4,318 nt of DNA from the IMG/VR virus record IMGVR_UViG_2671180906_000008. One strand, given 5' to 3'. Below are positions 2,062-4,318 of this stretch, in pieces (position 1 is the first letter of the stretch; each line of letters starts with the position of its first letter). A program made the translations under genes and the position numbers. The notes under the pieces were generated by a model. That model saw only the letters and a program-made list of their open reading frames with translations, ran no database searches and was not told the DNA's origin. This stretch comes from a virus. Lineage: Duplodnaviria > Heunggongvirae > Uroviricota > Caudoviricetes.

Positions 2062-3051
2062 ATGAATATGACTAAAAACGCTTTCCAGTTTGGCATTGAG
2101 CCAGTACGCATCACCGATACCGACAACATTCAGGTCAATGAAGGTCTGCCGACTAACGCCGACCCTCAGGTCTATGCCCTCCAGTTAGCTAAGACTGTTA
2201 AGGCTATGCTGAACGGTGTACTTAAAGACGCTCAAGATAACATCCCGTTCCCTGTAGAAGTCCTGCCGACCCGTAACAGCTTACCGACTCCAATCATTGC
2301 TCACACTCTGGCTGACCGCTCTGTGCTGGTCCCTGTCCGTGGTGGTAAGCGACCTGAAGTTGTGACCGCTCCGTCTGGCACTGAAATCACCGTTGAGCCG
2401 ATTGAACAGGCGATCCTCGTGTCTCACCAAACAAAGCTTTGGGACCAGAAGTCGACCACTGGTTTCACTCAGGGGACGCTCCAGCAGGACGCACTGAACA
2501 TCTGCGATAACGTGATTCGTACCATTAACTCTAAGATGGTTGACGTGCTGGAGTCCTCAAAGCTGCTGAAGACCGTAGAACTTCCGGCCCTGACTGGTAG
2601 CCTGACCGCTAAGGCTGACGCTATCATGGATGCCCTGTACGAGAACACGGAGTCTTCTTTCGGTTCTGAGGTTTCTGACTACGGCATTATCGCCCATGAG
2701 TCACACCTCAAGGCTCTCTCCCGTCTGGCTGCTAAGCAGGGCTTCGGTGGTGAAGACGCTATCGTCGATATGCTGGGGACTGACGTCGCCTATTACAACG
2801 GTGAAGACCGTGGCGTGTTCATGATGGCTAAGCGTTTTACGGCTCTGAGCTTCGGTTGCTTCCGTCACGATGGCGAGAGCATTACTGTGGTCCTTTCACG
2901 TGATGGAGACTCCCAGTCTCACGACCTTGAGATTCTCGGCAAGGTGTTTGTTGTAGCTGAAGCTGCTACGACCATCAAGATGGGTACTGGCTCGGCTACT
3001 GCTGTCCTGCCTGTAGTCAAACGCCTGAGCTTCACTAAAGAAGCTAACTAA
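2062..3051 (+). CDS. Hypothetical protein, 329 aa, likely highly expressed; possible virion structural protein by context only
   Basis: AAGGAGA (2046-2052) 10 nt before ATG 2062. Strong major-codon bias (cgt, ggt, gct, ctg, ccg, aac, ttc, tac). Hairpin plus T-tract terminator immediately downstream. No family recognised by eye. Confidence 0.8.
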   Translation: MNMTKNAFQFGIEPVRITDTDNIQVNEGLPTNADPQVYALQLAKTVKAMLNGVLKDAQDNIPFPVEVLPTRNSLPTPIIAHTLADRSVLVPVRGGKRPEVVTAPSGTEITVEPIEQAILVSHQTKLWDQKSTTGFTQGTLQQDALNICDNVIRTINSKMVDVLESSKLLKTVELPALTGSLTAKADAIMDALYENTESSFGSEVSDYGIIAHESHLKALSRLAAKQGFGGEDAIVDMLGTDVAYYNGEDRGVFMMAKRFTALSFGCFRHDGESITVVLSRDGDSQSHDLEILGKVFVVAEAATTIKMGTGSATAVLPVVKRLSFTKEAN

Positions 3052-3065
3052 CAATAACGACTATT

Positions 3066-3102
3066 GGTCAGACTTCCGAACTGGATGTCTGGCCTTTATT
3101 TT
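3066..3102 (+). terminator. Intrinsic (factor-independent) terminator downstream of the 329-aa ORF
   Basis: GGTCAGAC (3066-3073) pairs with GTCTGGCC (3087-3094) with one G.U pair; inner TCC/GGA pairs extend the stem; 5-nt loop gaact; followed by TTTATTTT (3095-3102). Starts 15 nt after the stop codon. Confidence 0.6.
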
Positions 3103-3146
3103 GTACTAGTAATCTAGTTTGTGAATACAGAAAGTAGGAGGGCCAA

Positions 3147-3221
3147 ATGGACCTACACAAAGTCTATCTCGTGGTCTTCCTGCTAAAGCTGGGACTGGTG
3201 GTCTGGCTATGGGCTATTAGA
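3147..3221 (+). CDS. Very short ORF (24 codons) behind a consensus ribosome-binding site; possibly a truncated gene start or leader peptide
   Basis: AGGAGG (3136-3141) 5 nt before ATG 3147. Reads MDLHKVYLVVFPAKAGTGGLAMGY then TAG 3219-3221. Too short to call a protein confidently. Confidence 0.2.
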
Positions 3222-3724
3222 CGATGAGTTTTGACTGAAAAATGTGAGACCTCATCTAATATAAAGAGCGAGCCAAAAGCCCCCATAGCCTGACCTGAGC
3301 CAGACCAAAAGGGCCGGGTAGTCAGACCGTGAGTTCTATTCCTTTAGAGGGAATATTACGTGCTTCAAGTCTTGACCTTCTATCTCTAAATGTGTGACTA
3401 TCACTACAACCAACTGGATTCACCTGTCTTTAAGAAACAATAGGTTAGCTGGTTGTCTTCGATTTGTCGTAGGCTCCCTTCGCCCGCTCCAATTTATCTT
3501 CACCTGATCAATCTGCCATTTTTGCTGTATCTGATTTTCTATATTATCTTAATTCAATCACTTCAGGCTTTTCGCAATCGCTGTAACACTTCCCCATTTT
3601 TTTGTAAATAAAAAGCGTTTACGCAATGCAATCCTTTTGTAACAACTCAGGTAAAATACCTTATTTTCAAGTTGTTGAATAAGTGGTTATCTACGCTTTT
3701 AACAAACGATTGATGGATTATTTT

Positions 3725-4276
3725 ATGAAAGGGAAATCTGCATTAACTCTTCTGCTCGCTGGTATATTTTCGTGCGGCACATGCCAGGCGACAGAGGCAG
3801 AAGTGACAAGCGAATCTGTATTTAACATTCTTAATTCCAGGGGGGCAGCAACAGATAAAAGTTATTTATCGTTAAATCCAGATAAGTATCCTAATTATCG
3901 TCTTCTGATTCACTCAGCCAAATTAAAAAATGAAATAAAGAGTCACTATACCAAAGACGAAACTCAAGGATTGCTAACATTAACAGAAAACACACGAAAG
4001 TTAACGTTGACGGAGAAACCCTGGGGAACGTTTATTCTTGCTTCTACTTTCGAAGATGACAAAACAGCGGCAGAAACCCACTATGATGCTGTCTGGCTGA
4101 GGGATAGTTTATGGGGCTATATGGCATTAGTATCAGACCAAGGAAATAGTGTAGCCGCAAAAAAGGTTCTGCTCACCCTGTGGGGTTATATGTCTACGCC
4201 CGACCAGATTAAGCGGATGCAGGACATCATTAGCAACCCAAAACGACTGGATGGAATTCTGATCCTACCCACGTAA
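3725..4276 (+). CDS. Secreted protein with N-terminal signal peptide and a GH15-like (glucoamylase/trehalase-type) WxRDS motif; ends at an in-frame TAA, possibly truncated or a pseudogene
   Basis: ATG 3725 gives MKGKSALTLLLAGIFSCGTCQA|TEAE, a classic n-h-c signal peptide. In-frame alternative starts at GTG 3683 and ATG 3713. AVWLRDSLWGYMAL at 4088-4129 resembles the GH15 WTRDS region. Visibly AT-richer with different codon usage than 384-3051. Frame stays open after the stop to the window end. Confidence 0.55.
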   Translation: MKGKSALTLLLAGIFSCGTCQATEAEVTSESVFNILNSRGAATDKSYLSLNPDKYPNYRLLIHSAKLKNEIKSHYTKDETQGLLTLTENTRKLTLTEKPWGTFILASTFEDDKTAAETHYDAVWLRDSLWGYMALVSDQGNSVAAKKVLLTLWGYMSTPDQIKRMQDIISNPKRLDGILILPT

Positions 4277-4318
4277 TATGGACACAGGCCTAAGCGAGGT
4301 TCTGGTTTTCAAATTGTT

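Follow-up and report, generated by a model that had tools for sequence, protein, structure and literature searches.

A conserved 26-codon reading frame for a predicted membrane peptide at the end of a putative T7-like phage satellite in enterobacteria

A short open reading frame of 26 codons, placed behind a strong ribosome-binding site at the end of an enterobacterial chromosomal island, is very probably a real gene that is translated into a 26-residue membrane peptide, judging from its sequence and from that of its relatives. It lies in a 4,318-nt stretch of DNA recorded as a Caudoviricetes virus (IMG/VR record IMGVR_UViG_2671180906_000008; the whole stretch is hereafter the window), and we call it the micro-ORF. 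Its anatomy, its conservation, its coding-type substitutions and its hydrophobic helix are direct observations, as are the phage-like promoters and the phage-like junction of the island. The fuller reading, in which this last gene of a parasite of T7-group (Kayfunavirus-like) phages is translated into a single-pass inner-membrane peptide, likely with a late role in lysis, seems to us evenly balanced between right and wrong. A specific lysis-timing or holin-like role for the peptide is a tentative idea drawn by analogy, and one that we would rather bet against than on.

The micro-ORF and its conservation among relatives

The elements around the translation start are the following.

2062-3051, + strand: island capsid gene (329 aa, predicted HK97 fold), the last large gene before the micro-ORF
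3066-3102, + strand: hairpin and T-run terminator, intrinsic or T-phi-like (hairpin at 3066-3094)
3136-3141, + strand: Shine-Dalgarno (SD) sequence AGGAGG, followed by the 5-nt spacer GCCAA and the ATG at 3147-3149
3147-3227, + strand: micro-ORF, 26 sense codons and a TGA stop (3225-3227), peptide MDLHKVYLVVFLLKLGLVVWLWAIRR
3133-3184, + strand: possible mRNA helix of uncertain status, in which the SD region (3133-3145) is predicted to pair with codons 9-13 (3172-3184)

The first-pass annotation of this DNA had pointed to a consensus AGGAGG well spaced from an ATG, just downstream of a terminator, and both elements are present. The terminator hairpin is followed by TTTATTTT and folds at -19 kcal/mol (z = -5.4 relative to shuffled sequences); a simple terminator scan missed it because of its long loop. 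In four relatives (L003, L004, L006, and L017) the stems differ in sequence at this place and still fold. The same annotation gave the frame 24 codons and an end at 3221, a count that used an out-of-frame TAG.

The ribosome-binding site is not beyond chance when taken alone. The motif AGGAGG-N4-9-ATG occurs once in the window, against an expectation of 0.17, but at least one occurrence was found in 31 of 200 shuffles, and 26-codon open frames are common because the window has 69 ORFs of at least 20 aa. What is beyond chance is the conservation of the site and of the frame among relatives, together with the hydrophobicity of the peptide. Its best 19-residue Kyte-Doolittle mean is 2.39, a value reached by 0.008% of random open 25-codon stretches. 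A single transmembrane helix is predicted at residues 6-24, with an internal lysine conserved at mid-helix, and the C-terminus is basic. The small hydrophobic peptide that had been offered as the alternative explanation of the site is thus supported by a conserved one-helix ORF of high hydrophobicity.

The region is found in 195 of 5,426 complete E. coli genomes, and none of these 195 has the micro-ORF annotated in RefSeq. The exact 26-aa peptide has one annotation in GenBank, as a ‘hypothetical protein’ (AOM43997.1). We found no homologue of the peptide in Pfam, NCBIfam, PHROG, PADLOC, or the phage collection, and its tblastn search against phages came back empty. An Rfam scan of the whole window (E ≤ 1) gave no match, and a simple sigma-70 promoter scan of positions 2900-3750 found neither a promoter for the micro-ORF nor an antisense one over 3147-3227. 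The mRNA helix that would sequester the SD pairs in 94% of the cells across versions, with zero compensatory changes and with pairing no better than in column shuffles.

We gathered relatives through the 329-aa capsid protein and by DNA search. This gave about 30 related loci from metagenomes and from at least seven genera (Escherichia, Shigella, Citrobacter, Enterobacter, Buttiauxella, Leclercia, and Rouxiella). All of them have a hydrophobic one-helix ORF in the slot of the micro-ORF, nearly always preceded by an SD. The ORF has 25-29 codons in most loci and 51 codons in one lineage. Every close short-form relative has a purine-rich SD at 4-8 nt from the start codon, with differing flanking bases. 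The short-form peptides include the following.

E. coli DETEC-P829: MDLHKVYLVVFLLKLALIVVLMVWPKVR
Metagenome: MSLHQVYLVVFLLKLVLVVVLMVWPKVR
Source not given: MDLHKVYLVVLLIKMALVVMLVVLRR
Citrobacter: MDLHKVYLGVFLLKLALVVWLMAIRR
Enterobacter: MDLHKVYLVVLLLKLGLVVVLMSAR
Rouxiella: MDFMSLHDAYLLSVFLMALVRLLGGQ

The Rouxiella version is strongly diverged and still has 26 codons, a hydrophobic product, and AGGAGG before its start. Among the 13 distinct homologous DNA versions, 13, 10, and 19 sites are variable at the first, second, and third codon positions, respectively, when Rouxiella is left out of the count. Synonymous changes are many (e.g., CTG to TTA), and the pooled pN/pS is 0.51, which indicates only moderate constraint. 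The 19-residue Kyte-Doolittle means stay between 1.56 and 3.0 across all versions. Changes of length within the ORF are of +3 or +6 nt, whereas the flanking non-coding DNA has indels of 1 nt; where insertions break the register (L008 and L019), a new stop follows directly. In E. coli 165 (L037), the stop of the 26-codon ORF lies 20 nt ahead of the junction motif that follows, showing that the ORF is kept independently of this motif. Part of the conservation is nevertheless at the DNA level: the first eight codons are almost invariant, synonymous sites included, and include a GACCTA..AAAGT motif of the kind found at the genome ends of the T7 group, and the last eight codons and the stop overlap the junction motif.

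The 51-codon ORF (MSMTSADLKSLLTLVYKLVFLSVGLYMVLSGRL...), also with one helix, occupies the same slot in Leclercia, in a second Shigella copy, in Citrobacter, and in islands whose capsid is 42% identical. It is mostly found behind its own SD, even if none is evident in L017. The 26- and 51-codon forms show no significant similarity on alignment, and the longer type reads the shared GACCTA..AAGTCT motif in a different frame. In L032, an island further removed (34% capsid identity), the slot is filled by a 124-aa gene for a non-membrane protein. After this gene, at 8440-8500, L032 has a different phage-type promoter-like site (GACTAAACCCCGACTATAGAGAGG), which suggests that island lineages may be matched to other T7-group helpers.

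The island and its links to T7-group phages

The window is the right end of a chromosomal island of about 6.4 kb. In E. coli CFSAN064035 (L001), the 6.4-kb island lies between a tRNA-Gly gene and the ETT2 secretion cluster, with a 17-nt direct repeat at its borders. Positions 2900-3700 of the window are matched in full by 155 complete E. coli genomes; some 5,000 other, island-free genomes of the species match only from 3475 on, and tRNA-Gly is found there. The island in L001 is laid out as follows, with window positions where available.

Gene for a tyrosine integrase of 543 aa
DUF4145 (RAZR) gene, which shares 8 nt with the end of the integrase gene by overlap
About 900 nt of non-coding DNA
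384-1130: gene for a Rha/Ant-type regulator
58-aa ORF
163-aa ORF
2062-3051, + strand: the 329-aa capsid gene
3475-3491, + strand: attR core TCCCTTCGCCCGCTCCA, the 17-nt direct repeat of the tRNA-Gly 3' end and right border of the island

With its place after the last large gene and before attR, the micro-ORF is the last gene of the island. Of the earlier suggestion that the site marks a module boundary, the boundary itself stands, as this is the last gene of an integrated element near a predicted genome end and attR; its explanation by a severed gene does not.

The copy in the window is base-for-base identical to those of Shigella flexneri SFBU1023 and E. coli ECMA0423, in which IS911 stands in place of the DUF4145 gene and of most of the non-coding DNA. 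The end of IS911 makes up positions 1-58 of the window. Two promoters and RAZR were removed and a third promoter was cut, leaving this remnant.

57-66, + strand: what is left of the core of a T7-group promoter (CACTATAGGG), truncated by the end of IS911 (1-58)

Because of the loss of RAZR and of the promoters, this copy of the island is degraded and probably silent. At the other extremity, positions 4260-4318 match the end of an insertion sequence, which cuts at 4260 a ygeQ-like gene flanking ETT2 (3725-4318; signal-peptide-like start MKGKSALTLLLAGIFSCG); in the related locus L002, ygeQ is likewise interrupted, by an element of the IS3 family. The 122 N at 1446-1567 stand for only 63 real bases in the otherwise identical L013 and L018, so that the seemingly broken frame of the 163-aa gene (1428-1978) is an artefact of the mask or gap. 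The S. flexneri SFBU1023 genome has two islands (L016 and L018) at different sites, with integrases 43% identical, one ending with a 26-codon ORF and the other with a 51-codon ORF. Among the island contigs of 6.4-7.8 kb we found no excised or packaged forms: they are chromosomal fragments.

The 329-aa protein has no match in Pfam, in PHROG, or in a tblastn search of phages, and the profile of its family retrieved nothing from the PDB sequences and Pfam. We modelled it with AlphaFold2, using an alignment of 36 sequences whose distant members came from a profile search, and obtained a pLDDT of 81.5 (11 close sequences gave 36). Foldseek comparisons of this model with the PDB retrieved the capsid proteins of phi29, T5, and HK97, together with encapsulins, with probability 1.0 and E-values of about 5e-9. 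Structure comparison of a predicted model, and nothing else, thus reveals an HK97-fold capsid protein. The family has 66 representatives in a library of 1.8 billion proteins, and one relative carries a Big_2 Ig-like domain.

Several other elements link the island to T7-group phages. The non-coding region of the intact island has three promoter-like sites, GACTAAACTATCACTATAGGG(G)A (L001 10632-10690 and 11221-11245), to be compared with GGACTTAACTATCACTATAGGGAAGA, the annotated promoter of Citrobacter phage CR44b. In a search with a 38-nt query, the intact promoter GACTAAACTATCACTATAGGGA matches 7-10 sites in each of 217 phage records, all of them T7-like and of about 39-40 kb. The DUF4145 protein (L001 9977-10636) matches the PADLOC model PD-T7-4 over its full length (E = 1.3e-102). 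PD-T7-4 came out of a selection for protection against T7, and the paper on that screen remarks that it ‘often overlaps an integrase gene’ (10.1101/2022.05.12.491691). It is now named RAZR, an RNase activated by rings of phage portal or recombinase proteins, in a paper that mentions neither satellites nor integrases (PMC13017515). Variant islands encode a 79-aa protein, rich in Gly, that belongs to the family of T7 gp6.7 (phrog_1320, E = 1.8e-11). This gene and one for a 52-aa ORF are the two extra genes found after the capsid gene in L016, L017 (7996-8390), and L023; E. coli 165 has only a 20-codon remnant of the former (L037 1346-1408).

In summary, the island appears to be an undescribed satellite of T7-like phages, designed to be expressed and probably packaged with their help. 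It has the tyrosine integrase and the 17-nt tRNA-Gly repeat of an integrative satellite and, by sequence, promoters of the Kayfunavirus type and a mimic of the genome-end junction. The link to T7-like phages comes from the promoters, RAZR, the gp6.7 homologue, the HK97-type capsid, and the junction taken together. A full-text literature search found no description of a satellite of T7-group phages. An artificial parallel is the T7 concatemer junction: Chung and Hinkle are said to have reported in 1990 that plasmids with a T7 origin and a concatemer junction are packaged. The island similarly has a single copy of the junction and a repeat-like stretch downstream of promoters for a phage polymerase, but it is natural and integrative, has its own capsid gene, and is known here from sequence. 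Among natural satellites, it resembles the capsid-forming PICIs (cf-PICIs), which are likewise small islands with an integrase and an HK97-fold capsid gene of their own, and the PICMIs, which are minimal satellites of virulent phages (PMC10803314). It differs from both in its size of about 6.4 kb without a terminase or portal gene, and in having T7-type promoters and a T7-type genome end.

The genome-end junction and the comparison with gene 19.5

The DNA between the end of the micro-ORF and attR contains the following elements.

3204-3257, + strand: phage-type genome-end junction motif of 54 nt, which overlaps the last eight codons and the stop of the micro-ORF
3255-3385, + strand: terminal-repeat-like stretch, its right limit approximate and inferred

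Local alignment of window 3204-3257 (TGGCTATGGGCT..ATTAGACGATGAGTTTTGACTGAAAAATGTGAGACCTCATCT) with positions 38972-39029 of CR44b (TGGCTGTGGCCTACAGTAGTGACGATGAGTTTTGGACTAAAAGTTTGAGACCACATCT) has a score of 52, against 18.7 ± 2.1 for shuffles. The phage segment sits directly before the annotated terminal repeat of CR44b, which is a T7-like Kayfunavirus. A DNA search with 3052-3480 against 50,697 phage records gave weak matches only (E = 0.4), at the start of the terminal repeat of CR44b. Such an E-value is not significant alone; what supports the junction is its position, together with the independent links to the T7 group. The junction segment of the phages is conserved in 260 T7-like records. 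Two of these phages, YZ1 and ECG4, have records of which one starts and the other ends at the equivalent of window 3254|3255, and together with the CR44b alignment they place the predicted terminus of the packaged genome at 3254|3255 (TCTAATAT...).

The 26-mer GATGAGTTTTGACTGAAAAATGTGAG at 3223-3248, which includes the stop of the micro-ORF, is identical in 15 loci. It is more tightly conserved than any gene of the island and is a signal at the DNA level. Downstream of the aligned part, the window and CR44b have in common the blocks CCCCATAGSC and CAGACCAA, and the terminal-repeat-like stretch shows strong similarity from satellite to satellite (z about 20). The stop of the micro-ORF is 27 nt from the predicted terminus and 247 nt from the attR core. 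The conservation across genera of the roughly 250 nt in between (3228-3474) exceeds that of the island proteins, and this DNA probably holds the repeat-like region and integrase arm sites. It also contains an inverted repeat, TATTCCTTTAGAGGGAATA, at 3337-3355, and a promoter-like fragment, GACTATCACTACAACC, at about 3405-3420.

Gene 19.5 (CDM21585.1) closes the gene order of CR44b ahead of the terminal repeat; it has a strong SD and encodes 52 aa with a single predicted transmembrane helix. T7 can do without its gene 19.5, whose product is a short protein that spans the membrane, and the gene is repeatedly mutated when holin or lysozyme function is removed. Authors have considered for it either an additional holin-like activity or an action on the M-hairpin close by, which serves concatemer processing, and its role is still tentative in that literature (PMC2680503, PMC8365609). 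The micro-ORF and gp19.5 (phrog_2193) have much in common: both are the last ORF before the terminal repeat, with a strong SD, one predicted transmembrane helix, and the same junction next to them. Gene 19.5 products have about 49-52 aa and one helix, against 26 aa and one helix for the micro-ORF and 51 aa in the sister lineage. The micro-ORF is half as long as gene 19.5, lacks the C-terminal tail, has no detectable sequence similarity with it, lies 27 nt from the repeat instead of about 235 nt, and is carried by an integrated element rather than by a phage. The phrog_2193 profile matches gp19.5 of CR44b at 6e-25 and matches neither the 26/28-aa nor the 51-aa forms, and BLASTP of the satellite peptides against gp19.5 gave no alignment. 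A likeness at the DNA level between the 5' part of the ORF and gene 19.5 of CR44b was discarded as chance (z = 2.7, 20 of 1,000 shuffles, in a different frame). Position and physicochemistry fit while sequence tests fail, which places the micro-ORF in the slot of gene 19.5 without making it a member of the family. By this analogy it is the positional and physicochemical counterpart of gene 19.5, and it probably works like gp19.5. The more specific proposal of a miniature factor of the gene 19.5 type in undescribed capsid-encoding satellites, coupled to a genome-end signal and acting in lysis timing or in the processing of satellite DNA, is one that we regard as doubtful.

Alternative explanations and proposed role

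The main interpretation of the first-pass annotation was that a longer phage gene had been severed here, leaving its 5' end, or else that a sequencing indel had shifted the frame, and we now give it almost no credence. Its appeal is understandable: T7 is laid out as gene 10, T-phi, and gene 11, which resembles the succession of capsid gene, terminator, SD, and ATG seen here, and a 51-codon ORF fills the slot in one lineage. Yet the homologous elements keep the same short ORF intact, at 25-29 codons in all close relatives, which contradicts the severed gene. The only longer ORF in close relatives is the 51-codon one-helix form, which is not significantly alignable to the micro-ORF, and there is no continuing frame, the next 250 nt being conserved non-coding junction and attachment DNA. 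Nothing points to a sequencing indel in the GGGACTGGTGGTCTGGC tract: independent complete genomes (L001, L013, L018, and L026) have an identical sequence in this region. The original observation was thus largely right and its leading interpretation wrong. A different objection is that the frame is incidental to cis-acting DNA (GACCTAAAG-type repeats, a processing hairpin region, and a terminase junction) and makes no functional peptide. The 3' third of the ORF does align with phage DNA that is non-coding and immediately precedes the terminal repeat, the 26-nt motif over the stop is identical in 15 loci and tighter than coding genes, the first eight codons hardly vary even synonymously, and the 51-codon type uses another frame across the shared motif. 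However, a packaging signal needs no SD at 4-8 nt from a start codon, and yet almost all variants have one, in differing flanking sequence; no variant has a broken frame; the excess of third-position changes, the in-frame indels, and the extreme hydrophobicity persist, even in the strongly diverged copy of Rouxiella; L037 separates the ORF from the motif; and the homologous phage stretch has no such ORF. We find this explanation unlikely.

Two further alternatives accept translation and differ on what it is for. The peptide could be a membrane depolariser akin to type I toxins (TisB, ShoB, or ZorO), silenced by mRNA structure or antisense RNA and serving abortive infection or maintenance. It falls in the class of small hydrophobic peptides of fewer than 60 aa, and its size is that of known E. 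coli toxins (TisB 29 aa, ShoB 26 aa, ZorO 29 aa, Ibs 19 aa), which it also resembles in its hydrophobic helix with an internal charge, here the conserved mid-helix lysine, and in a possible SD-occluding fold; the C-terminus is basic, 94% of the cells retain the pairing of the predicted SD-sequestering helix, and the island already has one defence gene, RAZR. Set against these traits, it differs from type I toxins in that simple scans found no antisense RNA or antisense promoter-like site over the ORF, no Rfam family and no toxin family of Pfam, NCBIfam, or PADLOC matches it, and the SD helix is without covariation support, so a toxin seems improbable. Alternatively, translation itself might matter rather than the peptide, with ribosomes affecting the polymerase at the junction, or membrane insertion tethering the genome end, in aid of concatemer processing. 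In its favour, most variants have 27 nt between the stop and the predicted cut site, and a role at the nearby M-hairpin has been proposed for gene 19.5 of T7 (cited in PMC2680503). This idea is purely inferential, the distance between ORF and junction varies (L037, L008, and L019), and the conserved hydrophobicity would not be needed for pure ribosome traffic; we consider it very unlikely. Holins and pinholins offer another comparison. Like T7 gp17.5 (67 aa), the micro-ORF product is a small membrane protein associated with phages, its C-terminus is charged, and its expression is plausibly late, but with 26 aa and one helix it is shorter than characterised holins. The island itself has no endolysin or spanin gene (its genes are int, RAZR, Rha/Ant, the 58-aa and 163-aa ORFs, and capsid).

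The reading that we prefer, a translated membrane peptide made late from the last gene of the island, would work as follows. Upon infection, the RNA polymerase of the helper would fire the T7-type promoters of the island and transcribe the regulator, scaffold-like, and capsid genes. T-phi of T7 lets part of the polymerase read through, and partial read-through of the hairpin terminator would similarly bring the helper polymerase to the micro-ORF, whose strong SD would ensure efficient translation. Transcription would then enter the phage-like genome-end junction, which begins inside the last codons. The peptide would insert in the membrane with its N-terminus out and its C-terminus in, as expected from the positive-inside rule, and would most plausibly act late in infection on the inner membrane, in the timing of lysis or in the manner of a holin.

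If translated, the micro-ORF adds a conserved 26-residue membrane peptide to the small proteins related to phages, one left unannotated in RefSeq even though 195 of 5,426 complete E. coli genomes and several other enterobacterial genera carry the region. Its position led to the recognition of a T7-type genome end, T7-type promoters, a capsid gene, and RAZR on one tRNA-Gly island. Virulent T7-like phages are a class of helpers for which we found no described satellite, and RAZR, so far studied as a stand-alone defence gene, is here placed inside such an element. If the parallel with gene 19.5 is true, the peptide would provide a minimal 26-residue handle on the function of this gene, and comparing the satellite peptide with the gp19.5 of phages could make that function testable.
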